Shown here piece by piece: positions 877 through 27,586 of a stretch of 64,000 nucleotides of DNA. Position 1 is the stretch's first letter. Each line of letters begins with the position of its first letter. The notes under the pieces are model-generated. The model worked only from the letters and a program-made list of their open reading frames with translations. It had not been told where the DNA came from and searched no databases. The position numbers and the translations under genes were made by a program. The stretch is from NCBI GenBank assembly GCA_000092065.1, contig CP000583.1; one strand, 5' to 3'. The stretch is from Ostreococcus lucimarinus. Lineage: Eukaryota.

Positions 877-1125
877 CGCTTATATTATTCACCTATGCGC
901 TTCGCAAGTTCGGCCCACGGATCTGCTGCGGTGCTATCGTTCGTGTGTGCGTCTGCGACGCCCGCGACGCGCACGGCTATGGGCGCCAACGGAAAATCAA
1001 CGTCGTCGTCATTTCGACGCCTCTTCGGAGCAGATTCAACGGCTTCCTTATTTTCCGCGAGCAATGCCTGGACTTCATCTTCGGCGTCGTCGTCGTCGGC
1101 TGCCGCGTCGACGTTTGCGTCCTCA
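877..1125. repeat. Subtelomeric copy (A) of a ~250 bp segment also present inverted at 27340..27586
   Basis: Direct comparison: the reverse complement of 27555..27586 (gcttatattattcacctatgcgcttcgcaag...) matches 877 onward. The translated ORFs 858..1202(+) vs 27316..27591(-) and 885..(-) vs 27286..27579(+) are ~90% identical. Confidence 0.85.
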
Positions 1126-2348
1126 GCGTCGTCGTCGCTCTCGGCGTCTGGACAAAGCAACAAATATTGCCTATCATCTTCGTTCTCGCCCGCGAAAAAT
1201 GAATCGTACACAGAGAACCCATCCAAGTCAAACACGTCGACCTCTGCGTGCCGCTCCGATTTCACGAGCCCGGTATACCCGTGATCGCGATATACCTCGA
1301 AGCGTTCTCGGTCCTTTAACACCGAGAACGCGATGCCCAAACGCTGCAGCTTTCGACACGCCGTCGCTGCTTTCGTGCGCCCACTCTCTATGCGAGACTC
1401 GTACGTCGCACGCTCTGACGCTAAATCGTCCAAGCACGTGACGACCACGCTCTCGCCGTCGACGACGAGCGGAGCGGTGTTGTGTTTTCTATCCCATTCG
1501 CGACCGGCGATCGATCGCTTCGACGTCGCGACGCAGTGCGCGCAAAAGTCTCGTCCTCGCTCGCCTCGCTCGTGAGCGCGATGCCAGCGATTAAACCTAA
1601 GCACGCTTTGGCAAGCGTCGCAGAAACCCGCGGACCCGCCGTTCGTTAACAAGCGATCGGGATGCCACTTCATCGCCTCGCGATGGTACGCCGCCCGCGC
1701 GCGGCCGGCCGGATTTGCGTTCTCTTTTGAAATTTTCAGCTCGGCGTATAAATCGAAAGGCTCGTCCCTCATGTCCTCGTACCCGCACGCCTCCGTCCAC
1801 CTCGCGAACGCTTCGTCGTCGGCGTCGTCGGCGTCGTCGACGCCCTCTTCCTCGCCGCGACTCGTCGCATCCGTCGCATCGTCGCCGCGCCGCAGCGTCA
1901 CGATTTTCGCTCCACCGTCGCGAGAGTGCTCTTCGCTTCTCGCGCGGACGCCTCGCCTTCGCGCTTCTTCGTGCACAGCTCGGCGCGCGTCGACGCTGAG
2001 CGCGTTCCCGTCGTAATCGCTGACGATGCTGTGCGCGTCGCTGTCGCCGTCGCGCACGAAGAGCTCGACGTGATGTCGCGCCCAATCGCGAAGGATTCGC
2101 GGCAACGGTTTCGCGTCGACGGTCGAAAAGGCGCTCGCGTCGACGCCTCGCCGTCGTCCTCGTGCGGGCGTCATGGCGTCACCGCGCGCCGCGACGCGAC
2201 GTGACGCACGGACCGAGGGGAACGCTCGCGCGTCCGCATTGCGCGACGGCGCGTCGCCGACCGAGGCGAAGACGGACGACGACGGCGAGGACGAGCGAGG
2301 CATCGAAGCGAGGACTCGATGTCGTCGAACGCGCGCGCGGAGACGCAC
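885..2348 (-). CDS. J-domain (DnaJ-like) protein with Cys/His zinc-finger-like segment; C-terminal ~80 aa encoded by the duplicated segment
   Basis: J-domain helix II/III with HPD motif (DLYAELKISKE...AAYHREAMKWHPDRL). This is followed by CDACQ...WHRAHERGERGRDFCAHC and an acidic C-terminus. The true start is uncertain because the N-terminus is R-rich. Confidence 0.45.
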   Translation of the reverse strand: MRLRARVRRHRVLASMPRSSSPSSSVFASVGDAPSRNADARAFPSVRASRRVAARGDAMTPARGRRRGVDASAFSTVDAKPLPRILRDWARHHVELFVRDGDSDAHSIVSDYDGNALSVDARRAVHEEARRRGVRARSEEHSRDGGAKIVTLRRGDDATDATSRGEEEGVDDADDADDEAFARWTEACGYEDMRDEPFDLYAELKISKENANPAGRARAAYHREAMKWHPDRLLTNGGSAGFCDACQSVLRFNRWHRAHERGERGRDFCAHCVATSKRSIAGREWDRKHNTAPLVVDGESVVVTCLDDLASERATYESRIESGRTKAATACRKLQRLGIAFSVLKDRERFEVYRDHGYTGLVKSERHAEVDVFDLDGFSVYDSFFAGENEDDRQYLLLCPDAESDDDAEDANVDAAADDDDAEDEVQALLAENKEAVESAPKRRRNDDDVDFPLAPIAVRVAGVADAHTNDSTAADPWAELAKRIGE

Positions 2349-3437
2349 GCCGAAGCGTCGACGTCGACGCTGTTCGATTTGTCACCGCGCGAGCACTTTA
2401 CGCGAGTCGTGCGCGGTGCCGCGGCGACGCGCGCGAGCGCGGTGTGCGCGCCGCGGCGGGCGTCGCGCCGGTCGACGCTCGCGATGACGACGCGCGAGAG
2501 ACCAGAACACGCGTTAGGACGGGATGTGCGAATGCAACGACGCGCGCGCGGTGTCAAACCGCGGCGCCGCGAAAGCGTCGAGGCGACAGGCGTCGAGGCG
2601 ACGGGCGAAGACGTCGCTCGCTTCCTCAGCGTGAGGTTGCGGGCGATGGATATAAACGTCCTCATGGACGGATGGCAGAACACCTTAGAAGACGCAGAGA
2701 TGGCGCTCGTGATGGAGAGGCACGTGTTTGGTGCGCGCGTGGAGGCGAGAAGCGCGCGAGAGCGAGAACACGAAGAGGCACAAATGACGATACCGAGTAC
2801 AGTCGACGCGCACGTCACGAAAAACGTGACATCGAGCGATGTCGTGCAATTCGTGGAACGCGCACTCGCTCGTGCACGCGCATTTGCTCGCGCGCAAAGG
2901 TTTCCTCCTGCGCAACCAGCGGGAACGCCGATGGACGCTTTGGCGATGCGCAAAACGGGCAAAGATAAAGCTCGCCGCGCTGACGAGATCGCTCGTCGGA
3001 TTCGATGGAAGATTCACGATCTCAAGCAAAAGGAAGTCTCGGTGAAGATAATCAGCGATGCGTTAGCGAAAACAGAGCTCAATGCGAGCAGCACCGTGGC
3101 AAAATCCACGTCGAGTCGAGCGCTAAAGCGCGCCGGGGGATTTCAAAAGACAATGTCTGCGGCAAAGCGAGCGCGGTTCAGCAAGCACAAACCGCTCGTG
3201 CTCAAGCTTCGAGAACCAGAAATTTCTATTCTAGGTTCGAAACAACTGACGTCGTTCGGTCGGGACGTCACGAACGCGGCTTCAGATCAAACGCGGCGCG
3301 TCGTGGTGAACGTGTCAAAGGCGGCGTCCGGTGTCTTAAGGCGCAACTTTATGAGTTCGGTCAAACGTCATTCGACGATGCCGAGAACGACTGCAGATGA
3401 CTTTTCGGTTTCGAAGTTTCCGAAGCTACCGCGATAA
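2319..3437 (+). CDS. Hypothetical protein, basic K-rich C-terminal half
   Basis: Long ORF whose composition shifts to a K/S-rich, less GC-biased tail (3000-3430), typical of real coding sequence. No domain recognised. Possibly divergent from the J-domain gene. Confidence 0.25.
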   Translation: MSSNARAETHAEASTSTLFDLSPREHFTRVVRGAAATRASAVCAPRRASRRSTLAMTTRERPEHALGRDVRMQRRARGVKPRRRESVEATGVEATGEDVARFLSVRLRAMDINVLMDGWQNTLEDAEMALVMERHVFGARVEARSAREREHEEAQMTIPSTVDAHVTKNVTSSDVVQFVERALARARAFARAQRFPPAQPAGTPMDALAMRKTGKDKARRADEIARRIRWKIHDLKQKEVSVKIISDALAKTELNASSTVAKSTSSRALKRAGGFQKTMSAAKRARFSKHKPLVLKLREPEISILGSKQLTSFGRDVTNAASDQTRRVVVNVSKAASGVLRRNFMSSVKRHSTMPRTTADDFSVSKFPKLPR

Positions 3438-3476
3438 AGTTGAAATGAGTAGAGTTTGTGTGATGAAACGTGGAGA

Positions 3477-4850
3477 CTAATTTAACTCGGGATACTGCCA
3501 AGGGCTGAACTTTGTCGGCACGCCCTCCGGCTTCTTTGAATCGTAGTCGTCGTTGAATTCCCAAACGTCTGTGCCGACGTCCTTTTCGAGCTCGTGTAAG
3601 TCGGCATGCTCAGCCTTCTTGAACCACCGCGGGGTCCACACTTCGCCCTTCTCCTTGCGCGTTCGTCGCTCGGCGCGTTGCTTCTCCTCGAGTTGCGTCT
3701 TCAAGGAAGTCGCCGAGGAATCACCTTCATCCAACGCCACGCGATCCGGGCGCAAACGAGAATCTGATGCTAACAACCCATAATCGGGTGCACTCGCCAT
3801 TTCGTTCATCTTGATTGTGTACGTCGGGAATCCGTACTTGTTCGCCGGCACTGGCCATTCGTCCACTTGCCAGAGCTGCACTTTCTCATCCTCATCCTCA
3901 CCCGCGCGCGTGTAACTTAAATCCCGGTTCCAGTGCCCGAAAACGTTCAATGCGGTCGTGCCATCCGGACGTTTGATCACGCCAGAGCACACGTATCGAG
4001 CAAAGCTCATTATACCGCACGCCTTGAAGTCAAGCTCGGCGACGGCGCCAGATGTGAGATTTATGACCTTCATCTCACCGAACGTATCAATCCAGATACG
4101 GCCGATGATGAGGTTATTCACTCGAGAAGACGGCGGAACGATGTTAAAGGTCTCACCAGTCTTGTGAAGCGTAATGCGGGTGCGACCGACCGGGAAAACA
4201 TCCACCCAATTACCCATGAATTTTGTGGTCACTGCGCTCGTGATATCGTACGTGAAACTCTTCGTCTTGACGTGCCCAGCGCCGATTGGCGGGTGGTGGC
4301 TCACTTGTTCTGCCAAATAAGTGCTACCGTCGTTCATCTTAAGCTCGAATGTCTCGCCCAAGATGGGATTGAATGGTTTTTTCGCTCTCTCCATCGTGCT
4401 GTAAACCGCCACGGCGAACGCCGTCACCTTGGCCAGCCGCACGTCTGCGTCTTCCTCCTCGTTCGCCTCCTCGAGCAGCCGCTGGTACTGCATGATTTCC
4501 GCCATTTTTTGTAACGTCGAAACGGGCTCCATCAAGAATGTGGGAAGGCTAAACATTGACATGATGTCGCTCCCTAGCATATCCTTCAGTTGACCCCACA
4601 TAGCCTTTCTGTCATCCACCGCGTCGACTTCGGTGTGTTCGCCCGCGTGCGCTTCCTCACCACCCTCGGTGACCTCGAGCTCATCGTATCCGGCCAAATA
4701 ATTTAATCCATCGCCGACGGCGTTCACCAAGTCCGACCCCCACGTCCCCACGCGACTGATCCACGAGCGATGGGCCTTCGCGTCTTTCGCGGCGTCGCTC
4801 GGTTGTTTCGGCGGTAGCCCGGCGCGAACATCGTCCTCGAATCCATCCAT
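3477..4850 (-). CDS. Oxysterol-binding protein (OSBP/ORP) family lipid-transfer protein
   Basis: Canonical OSBP fingerprint EQVSHHPP (EQVSHHPPIGAGHV) and ORD-domain conservation throughout. ATG verified at 4850. Confidence 0.85.
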   Translation of the reverse strand: MDGFEDDVRAGLPPKQPSDAAKDAKAHRSWISRVGTWGSDLVNAVGDGLNYLAGYDELEVTEGGEEAHAGEHTEVDAVDDRKAMWGQLKDMLGSDIMSMFSLPTFLMEPVSTLQKMAEIMQYQRLLEEANEEEDADVRLAKVTAFAVAVYSTMERAKKPFNPILGETFELKMNDGSTYLAEQVSHHPPIGAGHVKTKSFTYDITSAVTTKFMGNWVDVFPVGRTRITLHKTGETFNIVPPSSRVNNLIIGRIWIDTFGEMKVINLTSGAVAELDFKACGIMSFARYVCSGVIKRPDGTTALNVFGHWNRDLSYTRAGEDEDEKVQLWQVDEWPVPANKYGFPTYTIKMNEMASAPDYGLLASDSRLRPDRVALDEGDSSATSLKTQLEEKQRAERRTRKEKGEVWTPRWFKKAEHADLHELEKDVGTDVWEFNDDYDSKKPEGVPTKFSPWQYPELN

Positions 4851-5107
4851 GTCGTACCGCGAGCTCGCACGCGTTCACCAGCGCCGATCGACGCACGTGT
4901 CGCTCGCTCGTTCGCGAATACCGAGACGATATCCGTTCGAGGGCTGCGCACGCGTCGCGCTCGCGCGACGACGACGACGCGCGCGATTGAAGACGAAACG
5001 ACGGAGTCGTGCGCGTCAAACACGCACGCCCACGCCGCGTTGACGTCGGCGAGACGATGCCGCTCGCACCTCCGTGTGCGGCGTCGTCGCGCGTCGGCGA
5101 AGAAGAG

Positions 5108-5161
5108 AAAAAACCCGCGTGTTGACACTGTCAACACGCGGGTTTTTTGTCAACTTGACAG
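5108..5161. promoter_or_regulatory. Perfect 41-bp palindrome (A6-CCCGCGTGTTGACA-c-TGTCAACACGCGGG-T6) plus adjacent TGTCAActTGACA palindrome
   Basis: Read directly: 5108..5148 is self-complementary with a 1-nt centre, flanked by A6/T6. It is immediately followed by a second 13-bp palindrome sharing the TGTCAA half-site. It lies between the WD40 gene 3' end and the OSBP 5' end. Confidence 0.8.
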
Positions 5162-5212
5162 CTGGCCCGAGAGCCGTTTTTCGTGTACACCTGGCTGGGT
5201 ACGTTTTACATG

Positions 5213-6610
5213 CTAATATGGCGAGTGTCGACGACCGGGCGGACGCGCACGGTCAACGGGAGGACGCTCTTCATTCCCCACGTCTGGTGTCCACGCGCAG
5301 ACCAACGCGTCCTCGCCGACCGTGGCGGGCACTCGAGCGGATTCGCTCGCCGTCGCGTTCGCATCCCAAACTATCGAGCGAACGATGTCGCGGTGACCGC
5401 GCCTGAGGACGGCTGCGGGAGCGCCGAGACCGACGTACGCACTCGTTCCGCGCATCGACGGCGACCCTTGTACGAGCGGGAAAATGCCAACCACACCGCT
5501 TTGCGTACCAGCGGAGAGGAACAGTTCGCCGGGCGCGACGCCGTCGTGAATACCCAATACGTAATCGACTTGCGCGGCAAACTCGGGCGCCGACGCCGAG
5601 ACTTCTGGAGACGACGTTGCCGCGGTTCGCACCAACTCTCGCGCGTTCTTTAAGTGAACCAAGTGCACTCCCACCCGTCGCCTGTCGCTCGATGCGACAA
5701 ATATGTGCGCGTCTTCCACGCCCGTGACGCACCAGAGCGCGTCGCGCGCGTCGCCGCTGGAGCCGGAGCGGCAAAAGCCGATATTATTCACCGCCGCTTC
5801 GGCGGACATGACGCTGATCAAAGACTCTTCATCGTTCAAAGGCGTATGTGCGCAGTCGAACGCGCACACCAAACCGTCGACGCTGGATGTATACAATTCA
5901 CTTCGTCTCTCGGGGTGAAATCTTACTCGCGTCACCGCCTCTGAGTGCGCGTCTTGGAACAACGACGCGTTACCTTGCTGACGACGATCGTAAAACGCCA
6001 CGTGCGGACCCACCGCGGTGGCGACGAGGAAGTCTGACGCACTACCACCGAGCGATGCGCTCGCGACGTCTCGCTCGTTAAACGGCGCCCTAAAGCTCGC
6101 CGTCGGTCTGTCGTCCTGCGACCGCGCGTCGTACACGCGCGTCGTGCCATCGCCGCACGCGCACACGATTGAGAATGGATCCGCCGCCGATCCGAACTCG
6201 CACTCATTCACGCTCGCGTTCAGCCTGATTTCGCGTTCGCCGTGAGCGAACGCACCCGTCGCGCGCTCTCTCGCGTACACGCGCACGCGCCCCGAAGTCG
6301 TCGCGACGGCGCAGGACGTCCCGTCGTGATTGCTCGCGATGTGCGTGTTGTACGGTGCGTCTTTGTCCACCGCGGTGGACGTCATCGACGTTGCCCTCAA
6401 CGACATCGCCGTCGTCGACGCGCGTCCGCCGCGCACGGTGAACGTCAACGCTTCGTCGCTTTCGGGCGTCGGCTCGACGTAGTCGTCGTTCTCGAACACG
6501 TTCGGCGCGCCGCTGTCGTCGACGAGCGCGCGAGCACCGCGCCGGTCGTCGTCATCGTGAGCGTCGTCGTCGTCGCGCGTTCTCGTCATCGCGCGAATCG
6601 CGCGACGCAA
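5213..6610 (-). CDS. WD40-repeat protein (probable)
   Basis: Repeated GxxxxVxxW/D-like blades (…TSGRVRVYA…, …DGLVCAFD…, …DALWCVTG…) and an acidic N-terminus. The family is not identifiable. Confidence 0.4.
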   Translation of the reverse strand: MRRAIRAMTRTRDDDDAHDDDDRRGARALVDDSGAPNVFENDDYVEPTPESDEALTFTVRGGRASTTAMSLRATSMTSTAVDKDAPYNTHIASNHDGTSCAVATTSGRVRVYARERATGAFAHGEREIRLNASVNECEFGSAADPFSIVCACGDGTTRVYDARSQDDRPTASFRAPFNERDVASASLGGSASDFLVATAVGPHVAFYDRRQQGNASLFQDAHSEAVTRVRFHPERRSELYTSSVDGLVCAFDCAHTPLNDEESLISVMSAEAAVNNIGFCRSGSSGDARDALWCVTGVEDAHIFVASSDRRRVGVHLVHLKNARELVRTAATSSPEVSASAPEFAAQVDYVLGIHDGVAPGELFLSAGTQSGVVGIFPLVQGSPSMRGTSAYVGLGAPAAVLRRGHRDIVRSIVWDANATASESARVPATVGEDALVCAWTPDVGNEERPPVDRARPPGRRHSPY

Positions 6611-6673
6611 TCCCGACGCGATCGCGACGTCACCGCACTTTTCGCCGCGCGCCGACGACGGTTGGCGTTCACC

Positions 6674-7387
6674 ATGTCGACCGCGCCTGACGCGCGAGCG
6701 ATGGCGAACGATGCCGTGAGACGGGCGCGGCGCGCGATCGATGACGTCGTGGATCGTTTACGAGACGCGCGCGCGCGCGTCGTCGTCATCGCGCTGTGCG
6801 TATGCGCGTGTACGAATCCGAGCGCGGAGACGTTTCACGGCGCCTGCGTCGAGGGTAAATTCGTCGAGCGTTCGGCGCTCGACGCGCTCGTGATGCGCAC
6901 GCAGGGACGGGTGTGCAGCAATTACGGCTTGTCACACGCGTTACGCCTGAGGAAACCGACGTACGGCGTGCATGACGTCATCATCGCGTCCATCGCGCGC
7001 ACGACGCGCGATGGACGGCATTTCCTCGGCGCGTTTGGAACGTGGTTTCGCGTGCCAAAGGTTTTGAATTTCATCCCCACGGTGTTTGTGAACGTCTATC
7101 GCGTGCACGTGACGGTGTTTGCACTCATAGCGCTCGGCGCGCTCGGTGCGCTCGCCGTGCGAGCGTTGCGTTTGATAAAAACAGTCGTCGTCGGCGTCTT
7201 CGGACTCGCCGCGGCTTCGTACGTGGCGCCGCGAGTGTGCGACGCTCCGCTGTGGTCAATCGCGCTCTGCGCCGCGATGTGGGGGTACGCGTACAAGAGG
7301 GGTTGTTTGAATGGCGTCGTCACCGTGCTCAAGGCGCTCAAGCCCCCGCCCAAGCACCGCCGCGGGCGCGGGCCGCCGCCTCGCTAA
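6674..7387 (+). CDS. Hypothetical membrane protein (~237 aa, 2-3 predicted TM helices)
   Basis: In-frame ATG at 6674 after the overlap with the antisense WD40 gene. Hydrophobic helices are present (VTVFALIALGALGALAV…, VVVGVFGLAAASYVA…). No domain recognised. Confidence 0.3.
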   Translation: MSTAPDARAMANDAVRRARRAIDDVVDRLRDARARVVVIALCVCACTNPSAETFHGACVEGKFVERSALDALVMRTQGRVCSNYGLSHALRLRKPTYGVHDVIIASIARTTRDGRHFLGAFGTWFRVPKVLNFIPTVFVNVYRVHVTVFALIALGALGALAVRALRLIKTVVVGVFGLAAASYVAPRVCDAPLWSIALCAAMWGYAYKRGCLNGVVTVLKALKPPPKHRRGRGPPPR

Positions 7388-7432
7388 ACCCTGGCGCGCG
7401 CGCGCGCGATGAGACTGGATTCCCGTTCCGCC

Positions 7433-7488
7433 GTTTCGGCGCCCGCGCGAGTCTCGGCGCCCGCGCGAGTCTCGGCGCCCGCGCGAGC
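7433..7488. repeat. Tandem repeat 3 x 18 bp (TCGGCGCCCGCGCGAGTC)
   Basis: Seen directly in the 3' intergenic region between the 6674 gene and the BASS gene. Confidence 0.8.
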
Positions 7489-7657
7489 GCGTACGCGTTC
7501 CGTCGCGTTTCGATACGATTAATAATATGGGACGGGATGATTCGTCTTGTAAATGATACTGTACGAAGATTTACATCTCTACGCTTGCGCCCGCGACGAC
7601 GGATTTGCGAATATTACCAAGCTTCGTCGACCATCGTCTAAAAGCAAGATATCCGTC

Positions 7658-8892
7658 TTAGTTTTCATCCGGAACCGGAATGAATCGCCAGATCACCGCC
7701 ATGGTGCTCCCTAACACCGCCATCCAAACGACGGAAACCGCCGAGGGCACGCGCACGAGGTACTCCGGGAAGTGGAGAGACGCAAGCAAAAAGCCAAAGG
7801 CGCTCGACTTCATCGCGGTTTCGATAGCGACCGTTCTACAAGTCGTTTCACTGTACTTGAACACACGCATGATCCCATAACCGGCGAGGCCGCCGATGAG
7901 ATGGAGCATGAAAGCGGCGAGTTGCAACGTCATACCAGCGCCCAAAATGCCGGCGGCGCAGTTCGCAACTGCTCCGCCGACGAGGATGATGGTGGCAGTA
8001 ACACCGACGACAGGGGAGAAAGGTTCAACGCTTCGACAGAACTTCGGCACGTACTTGTTCAAAGTCAAACCGAGAACGACGGGCACAAGAACAACTTGGA
8101 TGGTGGAAATCGCCATGCCCATGGCGTCCACGTCGACGACGGCGCCCAAAGCGAGTTTGCAAATGAGCGGAGTCATGAAGATGCAGCCGACGGTGGTGGC
8201 GGTAGTCATGAGTACAGAGAGCGCGACATCACCCCGGGCGATGTAAGCGCACAGGTTGCTCGCCTGACCGCCGTTGATTGAACCCACTAGGATCAGACCG
8301 GCGAGGAGCGGGCCGCTCAAACCAAGCGCGTTGCCGATGACGAACGCCAACGCCGGCATGAGGACGTAGCACGCGAAAAATCCGAGCCCAATCACCCGCG
8401 GTTTTAAGAAAACGCGCTTGAAGTCATCAAGGGTGAGCGTGATGCCCATGGAAAACATGAGCAACGCCAAGCACGCCGTGTACGCGTTGTTCGTCATGAA
8501 CGCAAACGTGGCCGGTTTCGTGACCCCAACGACCGCGGCAAGGATGGTCCAAATCGGAAACAAGTTGGCGAAGACCTCCGAAAACTTCTTGAACGTCGCC
8601 ATGGGCGCGATCGCCCCCCCGGCCGCGCGCGGGACGACGGACCCCCTTCGCTTTTCTCGCGACGCGCCCCCCCCGAACCTAGTCGCCGTCGCCGTCGCTC
8701 GCGCGACGCCCGCGGCGCCCGCGACCGCGCGACCGACGTCACCGATGGCGTTCGGCATCACACATCGCTCGCCCGCGGCTCGACGCCGCGCATCGCCCGC
8801 GGCTCGAGCTCGCGCGCGATGCGCGCGCTTCGTGGATAAAGCCGTACCCCCAGCGCGGTGCGCGCGCGGGGCGGTGGCGAGCGCGCGCGCGG
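7658..8892 (-). CDS. Bile acid:sodium symporter (BASS) family transporter, plastid-type with S/A/R-rich N-terminal presequence
   Basis: Full-length BASS/SBF topology and motifs (…GFFACYVLMPALAFVIGNALGLS…GLILVGSINGGQASN…). ATG verified at 8892 (MSGAARAL…), preceding a ~100-aa low-complexity presequence. Confidence 0.85.
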
Positions 8893-19450: not shown

Positions 19451-19491
<41 letters not shown>

Positions 19492-20180: not shown

Positions 20181-20296
20181 GCTTCTCGCGGGTGGATTAT
20201 TTTTTAATGTGTAATAAACGTGATGAGTAATACAAGACGCCGAGGTGTCGTAAATGAATCGTTGAGAAATTTCTAAATTGCGTGCGGCGCACTCGA

Positions 20297-23200
20297 TCAA
20301 GCCTCGTCCTTGTCCGCGAGCGATTGCGAGCTGTTTCGGCGATGAATGCTCGCCGCCGAGGCCAAGTTGCGCAAGAAATCTTCGTTACGCTTGCTCCCGC
20401 TCCCGCTGACGAGGGCGGAGAACTTGCCGATTTTGTTCTTCAGTAATTGGTCCGGCTCGCCGTATTCGACGAGTTCACCTCTGTCCAAGAAGGCCACCTT
20501 GTCGCTGTCCATGATGGTGTTCAAGCGATGCGCGATGGTGAGCGTCGTGCAGTCGCTAAAGGCTTCGCGCACGGTCTTCTGAATCAAAGCGTCGCTATCC
20601 ATGTCAACTGATGCGGTGGCTTCGTCCATCATCAATACGCGGCTTTGGCGCAGCAAAGCGCGACCCATGCACAGAAGCTGTCGCTGTCCGAGCGAAAAGT
20701 TGGCGCCGTTGTCGATCACCTCCATGTCCAAGCGCTTCGCGCTCTTGTCCACCATCGGACGCAATCCAACCTTCTCCAACACTTCCCACACCGCATCATC
20801 TTGATGCTCGTCGAAGGGATCCAGGTTACTGCGAATGGAACCGGCAAACATGAACGGATCTTGCGGAATCATAGCCATCTTGGATCGCAAGTCTCGCAAT
20901 CCGAGCGCTCTGATGTCAATCCCATCCAGGCGCACCGTACCCGTCGCCGGTTCGACGATCCGGAATAGAGCGACGAACATGGAAGACTTACCGCTACCGG
21001 TACGACCGCAAATGCCTACTTTTTCGCCCGAGTTGACGGTGAAGGTCAAGTTTTTCAACACCAAAGGCAAGCCAGGGCGGTAGCGCATGCTGAGATTATC
21101 GACCTCGAGCTTACCCTTCTTCGGCCAATCCACAGGAATGCCGAGGGCGACGCTGGCATCGGTATCGTGAGAGCTCTCCAACGGCTTATCCAAGTATTCT
21201 ACGATACGCTCGACGGCGTTCATTTTTGTTTCCAATTCGCTCGCCATGTTGGTGCCGTGTTCCATGTACTTGGTGACATCAAGCGCGTACACGAGCGTCA
21301 AACCGGCCAGACCGGCGCTCACGTTACCCTGGATCACCAAGAACGTGGCGCAAGAGACGATGACGCTGCCGATGAGACGCAACCGAATCGCGAGCCAGAG
21401 AGCGACGAGGCGCTGCGTGACGTAGGCGTCAGCGTTCTTTTCCATTAAGCGGTTCGCCATCATGGTGAAGTGCCCGCCGACCCGGTACGCTCGAATAGTC
21501 TCGACGCCGCTTACGGCTTCGCCCAATCCGCTGTAGATCGGTGATCGCGTGATGGACTCAATACGCTGCAACTCGCGGCAAGCAGGGATGTAAAATCTCT
21601 GAATCGAGAGGTAAAGAATGAGGATAGGCGGCAGGGCAACAGTGAACCATTTCGTGGCCACGCACACAATGATGAGCGTGGTGATGATGTTTGAGATGCA
21701 CCCGAGGAACTGCACGACGATGCCCGGCAACACGATATCAATTGTCTCTGTGTCACGGCTGAAGCGGTTAATGATGCGGCCACTCGGGGTGGTGTCGAAG
21801 AAACTCATGGGCATCTTCATCACTCGCGAGAGCAAGTTTTCGTGCATCCATCGGCATGCGCGGCAGAGGAAAAAGTAGAGAGTAAGACTTCGAACGAAGA
21901 TAAAAATGCCGTTGACGACAAAGATCCCAAAGTACATGAGAAGATATTCGTTGCTCGTCCACCCGAACTGATTCGTCGCCCACCAAGTCAACCAATAATC
22001 GAGGAAAGCCTTGGTTCCGTACTCGCAGCCAAAAAACATTATGACAAAAATGAAGTTCCACTTCGTTCCCGTGGCTTCGAAAAGCTTGAGATACACGCGC
22101 GCGCTAACGTTGCCCGTCGCGCGTTCTTCTTCTTTGGTCGCGTCGACGTCCTTGGCAGAAGAGTTGATAACAGTTCGTTGACGGAAGAGATCAGGCTTTT
22201 CCGTCTTCTTCTCTGTGGATCCGTCGCCTTCGTCGCGATCGATGCCATGCGTCTTCATAAGCTCGCAAAAAGCACCTTTTTTAGCCATGAGCGAGTTGTA
22301 GTTGCCAACTTCTTGCATCTTGCCGTCGCCCAGCACCACGACTTGATCGGCTCTGGGCAAATACTGAAGCGCGTTGGTGACGAGAATCACAGTCTTGTCC
22401 TTCAGTTCTCCCGTCATGACTTCCTTGAAGAGCGCAGAGCCGACGTGGTTATCTACGGCGCTCAGGGGATCATCAAAGATGTAAACATCGCTTTCCGCGT
22501 ACAAAGCACGCGCAATGGCAACGCGCTGCTTTTGGCCGCCCGAAAGCGTCACACCGCGCTCGCCGATGGTCGTTTGGTCGCCCGCGGGCAAAATTTCTAG
22601 ATCTGACGCGAGCTGCGCCAGGCGGACAGCCTTTTCGTACTTGTTCTCATCGTACACCTGGCCAAATACGATGTTCTCTTTGACAGTCGCGTTTAAGATC
22701 CACGCTTGTTGCGCGCAGAATGATACCGCACCACTCACTTTGATATCGCCGCTCTTGCACGTGACAAACTTATTGAGCGCCGAAGCGAGCGTCGATTTGC
22801 CGCAACCGACTGGGCCGACGATCATGGTCAGAGTCCGAGGTTTTACTTCAAAGTCGAGCCCAGCGAGTTCAAATGGTTCTTCTTCAGCCACGGTGACGTT
22901 TACCACGGTTTCATCGACGGTGACAGCTTCTTCCAACTTGTCCTCTTCAATTTTCTTCTCTTTCTTCTCTTTCTTGCTCGATCGGCCAGGAGGGCCCTTC
23001 GGCGCCTCTTCCTCTGGCTTCTTCGGAAGCGTCGGCCAGGCAACCGTCGCATCGGTGCATCTCACGGTACCCGGTTCGGAAAGATCCACTTCGTACTGTT
23101 CACACTCGTCCGCGTCGAGGAAGGACGCTAAACGCTGAATCGCGTTGAGCGCGTTGAGCAACGTGTTGAGCAGAAACGGCACGAGCACGAGGGGGAAACG

Positions 23201-24073
23201 GAGCATGTTGAACAGAGCCAAGGCCGTGTAGGCTTTACTCGTGATGATCGGGTTTCCAGAGAGAGAATAAGTGCCGAGAGAACACACGGCAATGAAGACC
23301 GGAGTACTGAAGAGAGCGACTCCAAAAAGTGCGCCCACTTTTTGCGATTTCCAGACTAAACCGACTTCGCGGTCGCGAATCTTTCTGACTCTATCGGCGA
23401 ACGTGTTCTCCCATGCGTAGTACTTGATCACGCGCATGCCATTAATAAGCTCGCCCACAATGTTAATACGCTCATCCGCGCACTTAACCAAGCCACGTCT
23501 AATCTTGAACAAAGTCATGGCGACGAAGAAGGTGAAGGGCGCTGCGACGAGGATGCATGCAAAACCAATGAAGGCACTCCACTTGAGAACGTCGTAAAGT
23601 AGCACGAAGGACGCAACGATGAAAATCGGCGCTGCCCATAAGTTGTGGATCATGGCAAACAGTTCCTGCAATTTGTTGACGTCGTTCGACATCAAAGTCA
23701 CGATGCGCCCCGTCGACTCGGATTGTAGTCCTTTTGGCGACAGTCGCAACACTTTGCGATACAGCGCGCACATCAAACTGTTACGAACCGATATGCCAAT
23801 CTTTTGAAGCGCGAATTCCGTGTGCGCTGTGCAAAAGTTTTGCAAAATCGACGCTGCGGCGAGAAGAATTGCGTACTCATACATCTTGCGCTTCGCCGTA
23901 CATCCGGCGGCGGCAGCCGAGACGCCGAACTTCTCAGCGAATTTTTCGCATTCAAGTCCAGCGATAATTTCGCGCAACAATAACGGCCCAGCAAACAAAG
24001 ACGCTTGCGCGATACCAAACAGCACCCCCGTCCACACGAATGTGAGCTTATGTCGCGTCAACAGCGCTCGCAC
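20297..24073 (-). CDS. ABC transporter, subfamily C (MRP-type, TMD-NBD-TMD-NBD, 1258 aa)
   Basis: Two NBDs with Walker A (GPVGCGKST / GRTGSGKSS), ABC signature (LSGGQKQRVAIARAL / FSLGQRQLLCMGRAL) and Walker B. Two 6-TM domains characteristic of short ABCC proteins. Confidence 0.9.
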   Translation of the reverse strand: MRALLTRHKLTFVWTGVLFGIAQASLFAGPLLLREIIAGLECEKFAEKFGVSAAAAGCTAKRKMYEYAILLAAASILQNFCTAHTEFALQKIGISVRNSLMCALYRKVLRLSPKGLQSESTGRIVTLMSNDVNKLQELFAMIHNLWAAPIFIVASFVLLYDVLKWSAFIGFACILVAAPFTFFVAMTLFKIRRGLVKCADERINIVGELINGMRVIKYYAWENTFADRVRKIRDREVGLVWKSQKVGALFGVALFSTPVFIAVCSLGTYSLSGNPIITSKAYTALALFNMLRFPLVLVPFLLNTLLNALNAIQRLASFLDADECEQYEVDLSEPGTVRCTDATVAWPTLPKKPEEEAPKGPPGRSSKKEKKEKKIEEDKLEEAVTVDETVVNVTVAEEEPFELAGLDFEVKPRTLTMIVGPVGCGKSTLASALNKFVTCKSGDIKVSGAVSFCAQQAWILNATVKENIVFGQVYDENKYEKAVRLAQLASDLEILPAGDQTTIGERGVTLSGGQKQRVAIARALYAESDVYIFDDPLSAVDNHVGSALFKEVMTGELKDKTVILVTNALQYLPRADQVVVLGDGKMQEVGNYNSLMAKKGAFCELMKTHGIDRDEGDGSTEKKTEKPDLFRQRTVINSSAKDVDATKEEERATGNVSARVYLKLFEATGTKWNFIFVIMFFGCEYGTKAFLDYWLTWWATNQFGWTSNEYLLMYFGIFVVNGIFIFVRSLTLYFFLCRACRWMHENLLSRVMKMPMSFFDTTPSGRIINRFSRDTETIDIVLPGIVVQFLGCISNIITTLIIVCVATKWFTVALPPILILYLSIQRFYIPACRELQRIESITRSPIYSGLGEAVSGVETIRAYRVGGHFTMMANRLMEKNADAYVTQRLVALWLAIRLRLIGSVIVSCATFLVIQGNVSAGLAGLTLVYALDVTKYMEHGTNMASELETKMNAVERIVEYLDKPLESSHDTDASVALGIPVDWPKKGKLEVDNLSMRYRPGLPLVLKNLTFTVNSGEKVGICGRTGSGKSSMFVALFRIVEPATGTVRLDGIDIRALGLRDLRSKMAMIPQDPFMFAGSIRSNLDPFDEHQDDAVWEVLEKVGLRPMVDKSAKRLDMEVIDNGANFSLGQRQLLCMGRALLRQSRVLMMDEATASVDMDSDALIQKTVREAFSDCTTLTIAHRLNTIMDSDKVAFLDRGELVEYGEPDQLLKNKIGKFSALVSGSGSKRNEDFLRNLASAASIHRRNSSQSLADKDEA

Positions 24074-24741
24074 CAGGTTTGGCTTGGGCTTGGTTCTTTC
24101 GTTGGCCCAGTCCTCGTCGAAAATTTGCGTCAGCTGTTTCGTTCGACGACGACGGTCAGTCTCGTTGATTCATTCTGCACTCGTTTTCAATCACGCGTGC
24201 GCGCGTACGCGTTGATGACGCGAGAAAAGTCGCGCGCTCGGCGAAATCACAAACGCACCCGTTCGCTATCCAACTTTTCCAAGTGGCACAAGTCCGTCGG
24301 TTCCAACCTCCTGACCGTGCCTTCGGCGATCAACGGCGACACTTGGGCGAAGAATAACGCCTTGAGCGGGTTCTTCTTGTTCCAATCGACGGGCGCAGGC
24401 GGCGGCCCGACGTCCTCCGCATCTTTCGCAGGTTTCGTCATCGTCTCGCCCGTCGACGTCATGGCGGCGACGTCGGGACGACCGAGCGCTGACGACGACG
24501 ACGAGCGTTCACGAGACGACCTCGCGCGGTGACGCGATGAAAGCTCAGAAGTTCGTGTCGTATCGCGGATGGCGGCGACGTGCGCGCGATTTCGGTGACG
24601 ACGTCGACGCGAGGCGATGTGACGCTGGGCTGCCCCGGGTGTTTTCCGTGGGCAGGTGGGGCCTGGCAGAGGTTTATGGGCGAACCAACTGCGATTTGAT
24701 CATTAAACGAGAATAACGACAGCGACGAAGGAGTCGCACGT

Positions 24742-25887
24742 TTAAACGGCGATGCACGGGTCTCTGCACTGCTGATGCACGGCGTCTATGGCCTTGAGCG
24801 TTTCCTTGCTCAACACAACCGAGGGCTCAAACGCATCGATGTTCTCCTTCAACTGCTCGAGCGTGGTGGCTCCGATGATGGTGGAAGTGTTGAAAGCGCG
24901 CGTCTTGCACCAGTTAAGCGCCATGGTGGTGAGACTCATACCCGCCTTATCGGCGATTTCTTTGTACTGCTTCGTCGCCTTGACGGAGTTTTCGTTCAGG
25001 TAACGCTGGTGGAAATGTTTGAAGACAGACATGCGAGCGCCCTCCGGACGAGCGCCGTCGAGGTATTTGCCCGATAAGGCTCCGCCCGCGAGTGGGGTCC
25101 AGGGAAGGAGTAAAATGTTGTAGTTTGACTTCGAGCACGCCTCGGCGACTTCAGTGTCAAACTGTCGATGCAGAAGGCAAAAAGAGTTCTGAATCGACAC
25201 CGGACGGGGAACGCCGAGCTCATCCGCCGCGCGAACAAACTCGCACACTCCGAACGTTGACTCGTTTGATAACCCGTAATGCCTGATCTTCCCAGCCTTG
25301 ATGAGCTCACCGAGCGCTTCGACCGTCTCGCGAATAGGGACAGAGTCCGATCTCTCCTTGCTCTGAATGTACTCTGTCGATCCCGTGAACGCGCCGATGG
25401 GCAGATACCTGTCGGGCCAGTGCACTTGGTATAAATCGATGTAATCCGTTCTCAATCGTCGCAGCGACGCATCACACGCTTGAAATATGCTTTGTTTATC
25501 CAATCTCGCCGCGCACGGCGCGCCCGCAGGCACCGTTCGGTTACCCGCCGTCTCGCTCTTGGCTTGGTATCCGCTCACCTTGGTCGCCACGACGAGCTCC
25601 TTTCTCAGCTCGACGTTCTTTGCGAGCCAATTCCCGATGATTTCCTCCGTCGTCCCAGGTTTCCATCGCGCATCGCTCGACGGCACCGGGTACATCTCCG
25701 CGGTGTCGATGAAGTTCACGCCTCGTTGTTTGACGGCGTAATCCAACTGCTCGTGCGCCTCGGCTTCGGTGTTTTGCACGCCCCACGTCATCGTCCCCAG
25801 GCACACGTCGGTGACGAAAACGTCTTTCGCGCTGCCGAGAGGGATTCGACGCAGCGTCGTGCGCGGGATAGAAGTCACGGCGGCCAT
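24742..25887 (-). CDS. Aldo/keto reductase family NADP-dependent oxidoreductase (Tas-like)
   Basis: AKR fold motifs: LGTMTWG N-terminus, DTAEMY, catalytic Tyr/Lys context, C-terminal LxxG cofactor region. Confidence 0.8.
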   Translation of the reverse strand: MAAVTSIPRTTLRRIPLGSAKDVFVTDVCLGTMTWGVQNTEAEAHEQLDYAVKQRGVNFIDTAEMYPVPSSDARWKPGTTEEIIGNWLAKNVELRKELVVATKVSGYQAKSETAGNRTVPAGAPCAARLDKQSIFQACDASLRRLRTDYIDLYQVHWPDRYLPIGAFTGSTEYIQSKERSDSVPIRETVEALGELIKAGKIRHYGLSNESTFGVCEFVRAADELGVPRPVSIQNSFCLLHRQFDTEVAEACSKSNYNILLLPWTPLAGGALSGKYLDGARPEGARMSVFKHFHQRYLNENSVKATKQYKEIADKAGMSLTTMALNWCKTRAFNTSTIIGATTLEQLKENIDAFEPSVVLSKETLKAIDAVHQQCRDPCIAV

Positions 25888-25955
25888 CGTGCGATGGATG
25901 TGAGACGCAAAGTGACGCGATCGGGTCGCCGCCTCGCAGGCACCGAGACCTCACT

Positions 25956-27263
25956 TTGCGCCCTGCCCTCGTCATGGCGTCCGATGGTGACGATGGCATC
26001 GCCGTGCAGACGTTCACGCTGGAACAAGAACAAGAACTGCGCGTGGAGACGCCCGCGAGGGGGGAGATAAAGCTCAAGCTCGTCGATGGCACGGCGGAAG
26101 TCTTCGGGGCGGAGATCGCCGTCGGGCAGAGCATTACGTGTGTTTCGGGACGTAAACTCGCCGTTTTCACCTATCACGGCGCGACGATCGAAGTGAGAGG
26201 AGAGGTAGAGATCGCGTACGTCGCCGGGGAGACGCCGATGGTGAGTTACGCGAACACGCACTCGGTTTTGAATGCGAAACGCGTGGCCGCGGCGAGCGAG
26301 AATTCGAGCGAAGCCGAGGGACCGAGGGTAATGTGTGTCGGACCGACGGACGTGGGTAAGAGCACGGTGTGTTCTATATTATGTAACTACGCCACGCGCG
26401 CCGGACACGCTCCGCTGTACGTGGATTTAGATTTAGGACAGGGCGCGGTCACGGTGCCGGGAACGATTTGCGCCGCGCCGATTGACGCGCAGATAGACCT
26501 CGAAGAGGGAATACCGCTGGAGATGCCTCTGGTGTACTTTTACGGCGACTTGACTGTGAATAATCCCGATTACTATAAGCACATCGTCTCGAGGTTGGGC
26601 ACTATGCTAGACGAGCGAAGCAAGGCAAACGAAGAGGCGCGCGCGGCTGGATGCGTGGTGAATACGATGGGTTGGATCGATGGCGTCGGCCTGGAGCTCT
26701 TGCTTCACGCTCGAGAGGCGCTCAAGATTGATCACGTCCTTGTCATTGGTCAGGAGCGTTTGTTCGGGCAACTGCAGCAAAAACTTAAGGGAACGGACTG
26801 CCAAGTGTTTCGACTGCAAAAGTCTGGCGGCGTCGTTGAACGCACGCCCGAGTACCGCCGAGCATCTCGCGATCGCATGTTCAAGGAATACTTTTACGGC
26901 GCTACCGGCGAGCTCGCACCGGCGTCGCAGACGGCTTATTTCTCGAAAATCAGCATATATCGCATCGGGGGTGGTCCGCGAGCGCCGACGTCCGCGTTGC
27001 CAATCGGTCAAGCTCCGTCCACGGATCCCATGCGAGTCACTCCCGTTGTGCCTTCCACGTCGCTTTTGCACTCCGTCTTAGCGGTTAGTCACGGGAAAAC
27101 ACAGGGGGACTTGCTCACTTCGAACGTTGCTGGTTTCATTTATATCACCGAGGTGAACATGATGCAGAAATCGTTCACGTATCTGTCGCCGTGCCCGGGC
27201 GAATTGCCGTCAAACGTCTTGCTCTCTGGTAACTTGAAATGGTTAGGCGAAGATGTGAAGTAG
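25956..27263 (+). CDS. CLP1: mRNA cleavage/polyadenylation factor Clp1 (polyribonucleotide 5'-hydroxyl-kinase)
   Basis: P-loop VMCVGPTDVGKSTVCSIL, central kinase domain and Clp1 N/C-terminal beta domains. It diverges from the AKR gene with only a 68-bp spacer. Confidence 0.85.
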   Translation: MRPALVMASDGDDGIAVQTFTLEQEQELRVETPARGEIKLKLVDGTAEVFGAEIAVGQSITCVSGRKLAVFTYHGATIEVRGEVEIAYVAGETPMVSYANTHSVLNAKRVAAASENSSEAEGPRVMCVGPTDVGKSTVCSILCNYATRAGHAPLYVDLDLGQGAVTVPGTICAAPIDAQIDLEEGIPLEMPLVYFYGDLTVNNPDYYKHIVSRLGTMLDERSKANEEARAAGCVVNTMGWIDGVGLELLLHAREALKIDHVLVIGQERLFGQLQQKLKGTDCQVFRLQKSGGVVERTPEYRRASRDRMFKEYFYGATGELAPASQTAYFSKISIYRIGGGPRAPTSALPIGQAPSTDPMRVTPVVPSTSLLHSVLAVSHGKTQGDLLTSNVAGFIYITEVNMMQKSFTYLSPCPGELPSNVLLSGNLKWLGEDVK

Positions 27264-27339
27264 CGAGTGAATAGGTTTTAAACACTTGTTAGCAGAACAT
27301 TTAACACGCAATCACTCAATCGCTCGCGCGTTTTTTATT

Positions 27340-27586
27340 GGCGACGCTGAGGACGCAAACGTCGACGCGGCAGCCGCCGCCGACGATGAAGTCCAGGCGC
27401 TGCTTGCGGAAAACAAGGAGGCTGTTGAATCTGCTCCGAAGAGGCGTCGAAATCATGACGACGTTGATTTTCCGTTGGCGCCCATAGCCGTGCGCGTCGC
27501 GGGCGTCGCAGACGCACACACGAACGATAGCACCGCAGCAGATCCGTGGGCCGAGCTTGCGAAGCGCATAGGTGAATAATATAAGC
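27340..27586. repeat. Interstitial inverted copy (B) of subtelomeric segment 877..1125; retains an in-frame relic ORF of the J-domain protein C-terminus
   Basis: ORF 27286..27579 (+) translates to …EVQALLAENKEAVESAPKRRRNHDDVDFPLAPIAVRVAGVADAHTNDSTAADPWAELAKRIGE, near-identical to the C-terminus of the 885..2348 protein including the stop. The sequence diverges immediately outside the block. Confidence 0.85.

Follow-up and report, generated by a model that had tools for sequence, protein, structure and literature searches.

In a 64-kb stretch of contig CP000583.1 of Ostreococcus lucimarinus (hereinafter, the window), the 3' end of a J-like gene located 0.9 kb from a CCCTAAA telomere is present in a second, inverted copy between two other genes at the far side of a 26.2-kb segment. 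We interpret this pair as a two-copy, lineage-restricted inverted segmental duplication that originated from the 3' end of the J-like gene and has since behaved as a recombining inverted-repeat pair, a reading to which we assign a probability of approximately 0.6. The locus is an instance of known processes, that is, a small example of a well-known type of rearrangement and no new kind of element.

The terminal copy occupies positions 865-1131 (minus strand) and the inverted internal copy, hereinafter the relic, positions 27342-27598 (plus strand), with 245 of the 257 aligned bases identical; when gaps are counted, BLASTN yields 91.8% identity over 267 columns (E=1e-108). These limits, which were set with MAFFT and BLASTN, reach about 12 nt further on the 3'UTR side than those of the original prediction, according to which a unit of ~250 bp at 877..1125 recurs inverted at 27340..27586; the predicted recurrence itself was recovered by the repeat search, MAFFT and BLASTN alike. 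In the repeat search of the window, the duplication appears as two pairs of inverted arms, 878-1089/27375-27586 (212 nt, 95% complementary) and 1087-1131/27342-27386 (45 nt, 96%), which together form one repeat interrupted by a 9-nt indel in a GAC/GCC run. The junctions are indeed sharp, as had been proposed, with the identity falling to noise beyond both ends in the MAFFT alignment, and the unit is also more than low-complexity sequence: the invariant 26-mer of the repeat occurs exactly twice in the 64-kb window with up to 3 mismatches allowed (0 expected, 100 shuffles), and the remaining inverted pairs in the window are GAC/GTC low-complexity matches at 70-86%.

The J-like gene (885..2303, minus strand; 472 aa in the model of P0001; ORF 885-2348(-)) has its functional 3' end in the terminal copy, which comprises 82 codons, the stop codon at 885-887 and 20 nt of the 3'UTR. 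The encoded protein contains an HPD motif ('KWHPDR') but matches the DnaJ profile PF00226 weakly (E=0.0018; 18.8 bits, below the 27.8-bit cutoff) and over profile positions 1-32 only; it has 27 homologues in Mamiellales-type metagenome data, of which the more distant ones, P0024-P0027, carry PF00226, and the Met of 'AMTPARG' may be its conserved start. A C-terminal motif (..FP.PP..A....DPWAEL..RI) is kept in the aligned orthologues across Mamiellales, and in the outgroup contig L035, from another Ostreococcus species, which begins with 18 CCCTAAA repeats, the J-like gene directly follows these repeats and is oriented as in the window. Because the C-terminus is conserved in the orthologues and the gene is adjacent to the telomere in the outgroup, the gene copy is the original and the internal copy is derived, so the suggested origin of the relic from the 3' end of the J-like gene holds.

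The relic, with 79 J-derived codons, a stop codon at 27577-27579 and 19 nt of former 3'UTR, resides, as predicted, in a convergent spacer 3' of Clp1. The spacer is 345 nt long and separates Clp1, the mRNA cleavage/polyadenylation factor (25956..27263, plus strand; Pfam CLP1_N, CLP1_P and Clp1, E down to 1.5e-67), from a DUF3593/DUF2499 (Ycf49-like) gene (27609..28988, minus strand; DUF2499, 1.2e-34; DUF3593, 1e-18), the exact protein product of which is encoded on 24 or more contigs. On the Clp1 side, 78 nt unrelated to the J-like gene (27264..27341) precede the relic and, on the other side, the relic ends 10 nt from the stop codon of the Ycf49-like gene. Given this short distance, the 3'UTR of the Ycf49-like gene presumably must run antisense through the relic and, by geometry, the relic would make up the greater part of the 3'UTR or terminator region of both convergent genes.

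Both loci are reproduced outside the reference assembly. The Clp1-relic-Ycf49-like arrangement is spanned, with both flanks, by 11 independent metagenome contigs (L003-L006, L011, L012, L016, L018, L039, L040 and L048), and the terminal copy is spanned by 4 contigs and by 2 more from a sister lineage, which rules out assembly error, a cause that the original prediction had entertained. Our census of contexts covered 30 copies, located on 11 JGI contigs and about 20 ENA contigs, and every one of them adjoins on its left the J gene body or the Clp1 side, and nothing else; in the JGI scan, this was the case for each of the 13 loci on 11 contigs.

The comparison of gene orders indicates that the relic is situated at a synteny breakpoint, at a junction that is derived. 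In the other species, Clp1 is followed on its 3' side by MDH (three species), OSBP or WD40 but never by DUF3593/DUF2499, and the Clp1/DUF3593-DUF2499 junction is absent from 5 of the 5 other Ostreococcus-type species examined. The gene orders across species differ by many single-gene inversions and are too scrambled for the reconstruction of a single inversion; in the outgroup L035, the telomere-J orientation is that of the window. No contig recovered has an empty site, that is, a Clp1/Ycf49-like spacer lacking the relic, and the junctions therefore do not reveal how the copy arose. Most likely, it is a by-product of the repair of a double-strand break or an inversion in a region that small inversions have repeatedly reshuffled, and two routes are conceivable, namely, a breakpoint duplication resulting from staggered breaks or a templated patch. 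We also considered the opposite order of events, in which the J-like gene was initially internal and convergent with the DUF3593/DUF2499 gene, and was subsequently moved to the chromosome end by a 26-kb inversion; this scenario is disfavoured because the telomere-J orientation in L035 is the same, because in the sister-lineage contigs L002 and L046 the J-like gene is located beside the same distal flank, and because the gene adjoins DUF3593/2499 in no species.

The divergence between the two copies is distributed unevenly. In the window, the left half of the repeat has 10 differences between gene and relic in 115 sites, and the right half has 1 in 123 (Fisher p=0.004). The left half of the relic is the same as that of the sister-lineage gene (0-1 differences in 121), and the right half is the same as that of its own gene (0-1 in 123, compared to 13-16 in 123 for the sister gene). 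Furthermore, the Clp1-linked alleles in L012 and L007 have a gene-type left half, and that in L016 has a gene-type D codon; conversely, a relic-type His is present in the J protein P0157. A rare T variant and a 9-nt deletion are common to the J-linked L045 and the Clp1-linked L012. The uneven divergence, the mosaic alleles and the rare variants common to both loci show that the two copies exchange sequence by gene conversion and that the population alleles are mosaic, a result that is apparent in the window itself and is supported by the contigs. Conversion homogenized the right half and left the mosaic alleles in the population. A difficulty for this reading is that the match between the left half of the relic and the sister gene would imply gene flow or hybridization. 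The original prediction was silent on the copies still recombining with each other and probably inverting the 26 kb between them.

The segment flanked by both inverted copies (1132..27341, 26.2 kb) contains the J body, ORF372, OSBP, WD40, SBF, MDH, a PqiA-like gene, an ABC transporter, AKR and Clp1, and is a candidate for inversion. With J denoting the J body, C the Clp1 side, T the telomere-side flank and Y the Ycf49-like flank, we counted 5 J-T, 12 C-Y, 5-6 C-T and 1 J-Y junctions, all in short-read metagenome assemblies in which the stretches identical between the copies are ~130 nt long. The C-T junction is represented by L007-L010, from four samples, and by L042, and the reciprocal J-Y junction by L037; the partial cores linked to the Y flank, L019 and L020, are gene-type, L019 at all left-half sites and L020 at the D codon, the one site covered. 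L037 and L042 lie ~28.6 kb apart on one 94.8-kb contig, JGI Ga0257114_1000036, in which the 26.2-kb segment is reversed relative to both flanks, and this single contig with both reciprocal junctions suggests, and supports without proving, a 26-kb inversion polymorphism. Crossing-over between the copies would probably invert the intervening 26 kb, interconverting an isomer in which the order is telomere-J...Clp1-relic-Ycf49-like, as in the window, and an isomer with the order telomere-relic-Clp1...J-Ycf49-like. The population evidence throughout consists of short-read metagenome assemblies of mixed strains, and the copies in the strains concerned are identical over about 128-130 bases, which is at or above the k of 127 that assemblers usually have as their maximum. 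With such a stretch, a wrong exit by the assembler is possible and, in the 94.8-kb contig, one wrong exit would force the second 'recombinant' junction; there is, besides, only one J-Y contig compared to five C-T contigs. We attempted to tell real C-T chromosomes from chimeras by means of the linked distal-flank haplotypes, but the T-flank haplotypes are common to the C-T and J-T contigs and do not separate them. Confirmation of the isomers would make this locus a compact, sequence-resolved case in which a short inverted repeat (~260 bp) derived from a gene drives both concerted evolution and recurrent inversion of a 26-kb subtelomeric segment in natural populations of a picoeukaryote, in a genus where gene order evolves largely via small inversions.

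The same stretches of identity sustain an unlikely but by no means negligible alternative, under which the relic is a one-off neutral product of a single ectopic insertion that decays passively, and the mosaics and recombinant junctions are assembly chimeras. Identical stretches of 100-130 nt between the copies invite chimeras, the C-T contigs are short (2.4-2.9 kb), in one contig, L044, the Clp1 side is of the window type and the core of the sister type, and the relic alleles carry private nonsynonymous variants (A>T, S>R, A>D), as expected of a pseudogene. However, the contrast between 10/115 and 1/123 (p=0.004) resides in the window assembly itself, and passive decay predicts even divergence, with no half equal to the gene of a sister lineage. 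Moreover, L007, assembled by MEGAHIT at k=141, joins the Clp1 flank, the mixed variants, a private T and the T flank via overlapping 141-mers, so these 141-mers must exist in the reads, and each of the five C-T contigs is from a different sample, with three or more assemblers represented.

The J protein of the sister lineage, P0002/P0163, is encoded on a 261-kb ENA contig. Chimerism could also affect the evidence for a relic in this lineage, which consists of the 99-aa relic ORFs P0169, P0170 and P0173 and of L044, where a window-type Clp1 side (99.1%) is followed by a sister-type core and distal flank; between the window relic and the sister gene, about 130 nt are identical. Accordingly, these sequences, considered as proof of a duplication that predates the split and evolves in concert, were downgraded as possible chimeras. 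The possibility that what we call the sister lineage is a paralogue located at a different chromosome end of one and the same genome was rejected because the sister-type J copies are much rarer than the window-type ones (1 vs 7 J-linked JGI contigs; clusters of 13 vs 100 members).

Granted a real inversion, a further reading, which we regard as a long shot, is that of a flip-flop driven by homologous recombination, in which the two copies serve as alternative 3' cassettes and selection on the alternation keeps both translatable. The J body would then be joined alternately to the telomere-side or to the Ycf49-side cassette, which in this strain differ by 3 substitutions and a 3-residue indel; the gene nearest the telomere would alternate between the J-like gene and Clp1; and the Ycf49-like mRNA would have a 3'UTR antisense to the tail of the J mRNA. 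If true, this would be a eukaryotic, recombinase-free analogue of invertible-cassette switching. The resemblance to the phage Mu G segment and to shufflons, contingent on the inversion being real, lies in a constant gene body with two alternating inverted 3' cassettes. Unlike those systems, the present one is eukaryotic, has neither a site-specific recombinase nor a recombination site, and carries cassettes that hardly differ from each other; nor is there evidence that switching is selected for.

Very improbable, in our assessment, is the expression of the internal copy as protein, with the J tail co-opted either to form a small gene or to serve, by splicing, as an alternative 3' exon of Clp1. 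The relic ORF, 27286-27579(+), does keep the frame of the gene and ends at the homologous stop codon, as originally noticed; its frame is free of stops in 17 of 17 Clp1-linked alleles (16 from contigs and that of the window), the indels within the coding part are multiples of 3 (3, 9 and 9 nt), with 1-nt indels found only 3' of the stop, and the relic lies 78 nt 3' of Clp1 on the same strand and is reported as an ORF of 97-100 aa by prokaryotic gene callers. Nevertheless, the ORF contains no ATG, its TTG start having been picked under prokaryotic rules and its 'leader' being an artificial one supplied by the Clp1-side spacer; it has no Pfam match; and it is in a frame other than that of Clp1, a gene whose own stop codon is conserved and whose Clp1 C-domain is full-length. 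No such tail is present in the Clp1 proteins of other species, and the private nonsynonymous changes in the relic alleles also speak against a protein function. The preservation of the frame is accounted for by conversion from the selected gene copy, together with youth of the relic and its use as the J C-terminus in the putative second isomer, and hence is no evidence of an independent gene. The relic is, as far as its sequence tells, no stand-alone gene; the lack of an ATG and the difference in frame make the 'mobile 3' exon' of the original prediction unlikely as well, and an Rfam search of positions 1-30000 yielded no match. There is a lesson for annotation here: 'intact' ORF fragments beside real genes can stay in frame by conversion and should not be called genes.

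Less probable still is the view originally proposed, namely, that the unit is a subtelomeric repeat block that circulates among many chromosome ends and of which one copy moved to the internal site. The proximity of one copy to the telomere, at 0.9 kb, fits this view, as does the dynamic nature of the chromosome end. The telomere (CCCTAAA)n at 1..207 was read directly, and the independent contig L023 has the same telomere junction, but among strains the distal flank between it and the J-like gene (208..864) varies by a 181-bp indel at 462-642, in L043 the telomere is added at the equivalent of 386, and L047 has an alternative distal flank that starts just 4 nt beyond the 3' junction of the copy. 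ORF 217-597 within this flank was rejected as a real terminal gene: it has no Pfam match and, in other strains, is disrupted by the 181-bp indel and by the alternative telomere addition. What was copied, however, is gene-derived and not flank-derived, comprising the last 82 codons and 20 nt of 3'UTR; the homology ends at 865 by MAFFT and BLASTN, and the flank 208-864 is single-copy and lies outside the duplication, the repeat search having found no second copy of it within the window. Nor is the unit shared among many chromosome ends, given that the 30 copies in the window and about 30 contigs have just two left contexts. The scan of viral contigs was negative, with no IMG/VR match that would point to a viral or mobile-element origin, and the J-like gene is terminal in the outgroup, with no sign of multiplicity. 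The original prediction had itself allowed that a unit present at these two places only, with no other subtelomeric copies, would suggest 'an ordinary local duplication', and this is what the window and the contigs recovered contain.

The least likely explanation is a retrocopy, that is, a partial cDNA of the 3' end of the J mRNA captured at a double-strand break: the copy does hold a stop codon and a short 3'UTR with a sharp end 20 nt past the stop, but the 3' junction shows no trace of poly(A), the sequence running on as CATAAGCACTCTAC, no retroelement lies nearby and no target-site duplication is visible, and the switch to the alternative flank of L047 4 nt further on suggests a hotspot of DNA breakage and not a poly(A) site.

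An inverted duplication of this kind is not without parallels. Perhaps, the closest are the inverted duplications of unique gene fragments at inversion breakpoints in the Drosophila melanogaster group, which have been explained by the staggered-break model (Ranz et al. 2007, PMC1885836). As in Drosophila, the sequence that has an inverted duplicate is unique, is no transposon and includes part of a protein-coding gene; the copies bound a segment, with the functional one at one end and a fragment, at a synteny breakpoint, at the other; breakpoints are reused, and many inversions separate the species. Unlike in Drosophila, the sequence of just one breakpoint is duplicated, and no ancestral, un-inverted single-copy arrangement was recovered, the origin by inversion being one that we infer; furthermore, the Drosophila duplicates average about 88% identity and decay (PMC1885836), whereas the copies described here are partly homogenized. 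An inverted pair with arms evolving in concert, and with both orientations of the segment apparently present in the population (here seen in metagenome contigs rather than by long reads or cytogenetics), also recalls the inverted low-copy repeats that mediate recurrent inversions and gene conversion, such as human inverted segmental duplications (PMC10150506), Y-chromosome palindromes and the flip-flop of plastid inverted repeats, but the arms in those systems span kilobases to hundreds of kilobases, compared to about 260 bp here. With subtelomeric duplicons, such as yeast X/Y' and the human blocks, the locus has in common one copy near a telomere at a structurally variable chromosome end; it differs in that there are two copies only, one of them internal, that a gene tail rather than a flank is duplicated, and that no sharing among chromosome ends was detected.

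Within the genus, 414-bp inverted repeats located 98 kb apart on O. tauri chromosome 19 were involved in a rearrangement (PMC8002553). That case differs from the present one in that the chromosome is the small outlier, which is hypervariable, and in that the change was a deletion seen in a transformant, and the passage that reports it describes no gene-tail origin or conversion (PMC8002553). Should its isomers be confirmed, the locus described here would also lend itself, by PCR, to the measurement of ectopic recombination rates and of the mechanisms of breakpoint duplication in Mamiellales. According to the same report, O. tauri supports efficient homologous recombination (PMC8002553). In both cases, the inverted repeats are short, lie tens of kilobases from each other close to the end of a chromosome and are involved in a structural change, in the window a probable one.

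The 267-nt end of the J-like gene and its internal counterpart are best read as a local inverted duplication, derived from the gene and placed at a rearrangement breakpoint, whose internal copy still recombines ectopically with its source. The window opens with a telomere of ~30 CCCTAAA repeats (1-207), followed by a first long open reading frame (885-2348, minus strand) within which the J-like gene is modelled, from the matched protein P0001, at 885-2303 (minus strand, 472 aa). The label 'J-domain' is a weak one for this gene: the Pfam DnaJ match, at 18.8 bits against a cutoff of 27.8, covers the first half of the domain, the HPD motif is found in the product, and more distant homologues carry PF00226. 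Conserved cysteine pairs (CDACQ…CAHC) in the family suggest a putative zinc-binding module. The terminal copy (865-1131, minus strand) comprises the last 82 codons of the gene, its TAA stop (885-887) and 20 nt of 3'UTR.

A repeat scan of the window recovered inverted arms at 878-1089 and 27375-27586 (212 nt, 95% identity) with a continuation at 1087-1131 and 27342-27386 (45 nt, 96%); the remaining inverted pairs are GAC/GTC low-complexity sequence with 70-86% identity. Alignment with MAFFT and BLASTN extended the complete repeat to 865-1131 versus 27342-27598 (plus strand; E=1e-108), with sharp edges at which identity collapses abruptly on either side; the two copies show 12 mismatches and two indels, one of 9 nt within a GAC/GCC run and one of 1 nt in what was the 3'UTR. 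An invariant 26-mer of the unit occurs exactly twice in the window with three mismatches tolerated, against zero occurrences expected by chance. The inverted duplication noticed in the original prediction is thus borne out by all these approaches, and it was correctly located, with the UTR-side extent drawn ~12 nt too short.

The internal copy occupies most of the 345-nt spacer between two convergent genes, Clp1 (25956-27263; three Clp1 domains, E down to 1.5e-67) and a Ycf49-like DUF3593/DUF2499 gene (27609-28988, minus strand), starting 78 nt past the Clp1 stop and ending 10 nt short of the stop of its neighbor. Given this tight spacing, the 3'UTRs of both genes must, by geometry, traverse the copy, which would accordingly be sense in the 3'UTR of Clp1 and antisense in that of the DUF3593/DUF2499 gene. 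The relic open reading frame (27286-27579) retains the J frame and the homologous stop, so the anatomy originally described, that is, a J-gene 3' end in the Clp1 convergent spacer with frame and stop kept, is right. The suggestion of a mobile exon finds no support, because this frame is devoid of ATG throughout, its start being a TTG under bacterial rules, and differs from the frame of Clp1. There was no Rfam match in the first 30 kb of the window, and the unit was not found in IMG/VR.

Many ENA metagenome contigs encode the exact Clp1 and DUF3593/DUF2499 proteins of the window. Eight distinct ENA contigs (L003-L006, L011, L012, L016, L018) and three JGI contigs (L039, L040, L048) span the internal copy together with both flanks in the window-like arrangement, which rules out an assembly artefact as its origin. 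The J body, the terminal copy and the distal flank are spanned by L001, L023, L038 and L043, and L023 extends to the same telomere junction as the window. A scan of JGI metagenomes with the invariant 26-mer yielded 13 loci on 11 contigs, and in the 30 copies from these loci and all ENA contigs, only two left flanks occur, the J gene body and the Clp1-side spacer. Two contexts only imply a local two-copy duplication, the outcome that the original prediction itself associated with this pattern; together with the unduplicated subtelomeric flank (208-864), they leave the proposed block shared among chromosome ends unsupported. A local inverted duplication of a gene tail is an instance of an already known kind.

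A C-terminal motif encoded by the duplicated sequence, ..FP.PP..A...DPWAEL..RI, is conserved in the J-like orthologues of other Mamiellales (~50% overall identity), and hence the gene copy is the source. The nearest named Clp1, from Ostreococcus mediterraneus, is 83% identical, so the window represents a different Ostreococcus-type species. In yet another such species (L035, Clp1 81% identical), the J-like gene comes immediately after 18 CCCTAAA repeats, its 3' end pointing to the telomere; accordingly, the terminal position of J is ancestral, and an originally internal J is disfavoured. In the five other species examined, the gene downstream of Clp1 is MDH (three species), OSBP or WD40; in none of them is it the DUF3593/DUF2499 gene. 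J, WD40, OSBP, ORF372, AKR, Clp1, MDH, SBF, PqiA-like and ABC genes are present in all species examined, and the order and orientation of these ~12 genes vary, often by single-gene inversions. Because the gene orders of the relatives differ there, the internal copy lies exactly at a lineage-specific breakpoint in an inversion-prone block. Across six Ostreococcus-type species (L024-L035 versus window 885-29000), the ~12 genes near this chromosome end are syntenic, their order reshuffled by numerous inversions of one or a few genes; J and Clp1 of O. mediterraneus are divergent neighbors.

Inverted duplications of unique gene fragments around inverted segments are the signature of staggered-break inversions and are associated with 59% of inversions fixed within the Drosophila melanogaster group (PMC1885836); the relic resembles these in being an inverted gene fragment. 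It could have arisen by a staggered-break inversion or from a patch templated during the repair of a break, either of which fits the derived junction, the inverted orientation and the many small inversions between species. A retrocopy is unlikely inasmuch as poly(A) and a target-site duplication are both absent. The left junctions read GACGACGA/CGCTGAGG in the gene and ATTGGCGA/CGCTGAGG in the relic, and the right junction GTGATA/; since no relative recovered has an empty site, that is, the spacer without the relic, these sequences give no further reading of the origin.

The divergence between the two copies is a mosaic. The gene and the relic of the window differ at 10 of 115 positions and by the 9-nt indel in the left half, which extends to the Asp/His codon, versus 1 of 123 across the right half (p=0.004, Fisher test). 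Polarity was provided by a sister lineage, S (contigs L002 and L046), with identities to the window of 85% for the J protein, 88% for the J gene and 94.8% for neighboring genes. The left half of the relic differs from the S gene at 0-1 of 121 positions, and both of these differ from the window's own gene at 12-13 sites; over the right half, the two window copies are alike and show 13-16 differences from S in 123. Clock-like decay of a single insertion cannot yield an S-like left half and a gene-like right half, so one or more tracts of conversion or recombination must end within the repeat. Recent exchange may account for the match of the relic's left half to the S gene, and genes have probably flowed between the two lineages. 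States also cross between contexts: Clp1-linked copies carry a gene-type left half (L012, L007) or a gene-type Asp codon (L016), a J-linked copy (L043) has a relic-type UTR, J proteins (P0157, L047) have the relic-type His, and a rare T variant with a 9-nt in-frame deletion is common to J-linked L045 and Clp1-linked L012.

All 17 Clp1-linked alleles (16 from contigs and the window's own) are in frame without a stop, the indels in the coding part of the relic being 3, 9 and 9 nt, with 1-nt indels solely after the stop. Private nonsynonymous changes (A>T, S>R, A>D) occur in relic alleles as well, and for that reason we take the intact frame to be a side effect of youth and of conversion from the selected gene copy, not proof of independent function.

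Three 99-aa open reading frames (P0169, P0170, P0173) combine the same Clp1-side leader with an S-type tail, and contig L044 joins a window-type Clp1 side to an S-type core and flank; given this mixture of types in L044, the three may be recombinants or chimeras. The distal flank of L044 bears a private 45-nt insertion. P0171 is a sister-type J protein with window-type last residues (…AELAKRIGE). P0171, P0157 and L044 are apparent inter-lineage recombinants, reflecting either real recombination or assembly chimeras. In the S lineage, the J gene adjoins the equivalent of window position 19639, and the intervening 17.4 kb (2193-19638; ORF372, OSBP, WD40, SBF, MDH and the PqiA-like gene) is absent from the locus and must therefore lie elsewhere in that genome.

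The repeat pair probably toggles a 26-kb subtelomeric inversion. A junction of the Clp1 side, the repeat and the telomere-side flank occurs in four ENA contigs from four samples (L007-L010) and at the JGI locus L042, and the reciprocal junction, of the J body, the repeat and the Ycf49-like flank, at L037. A single 94.8-kb contig, Ga0257114_1000036, contains both L037 and L042, and in it the 26-kb middle segment is opposed to both outer flanks relative to the window. Crossing-over between inverted repeats would be expected to give both recombinant junctions and the flipped segment. All genes would remain intact in the flipped isomer, with the C-terminus of J supplied by the 'relic'. PMC8002553 describes efficient homologous recombination in Ostreococcus and, in O. 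tauri, short inverted repeats tens of kilobases apart in a rearrangement. The competing explanation is an assembler mis-path: all the evidence for inversion comes from short-read metagenome assemblies of strain mixtures, the copies in the relevant strains share ~128-130 identical bases, at least the usual largest k-mer, and a single mis-path would produce both recombinant junctions of the 94.8-kb contig. Haplotypes of the distal flank fail to separate the junction classes. On balance, we give a 26-kb inversion polymorphism somewhat better than even odds. Two further contig ends, linked to the Ycf49 side (L019, L020), show gene-type states, in keeping with such crossing-over. Compared with the window, Ga0257114_1000036 has ~2.3 kb extra between the equivalents of 1974 and 14436 and continues for 3.9 kb past the equivalent of 536, where the window has just 536 nt.

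The chromosome end itself is variable. Telomere addition is at 208 in the window and L023 and at the equivalent of 386 in the JGI contig L043, a difference implying that chromosome ends in natural populations undergo truncation and telomere healing. A 181-bp segment (462-642) is present in the window, L023 and L010 and absent in L001, L043, L007 and L008; this indel disrupts the open reading frame 217-597 and makes it unlikely that the frame is a gene. In one strain (L047, 1-95), an entirely different distal sequence (…GGAATGGTGAAAGCGTCGAAACCTAGAAACCTAGAAAG…), with no match among the sequences fetched, begins 4 nt past the repeat end after the J gene. This places a second breakpoint no more than 4 nt from the edge of the repeat and hints that the DNA immediately beyond the J 3'UTR is a hotspot of breakage. 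The repeat scan also revealed a tandem array at 54956-55117, made of five 27-nt units, CGTCGCGTTTCGCC[A/G]AACGAGGGCGAA, the central copies of which are 85-100% identical.
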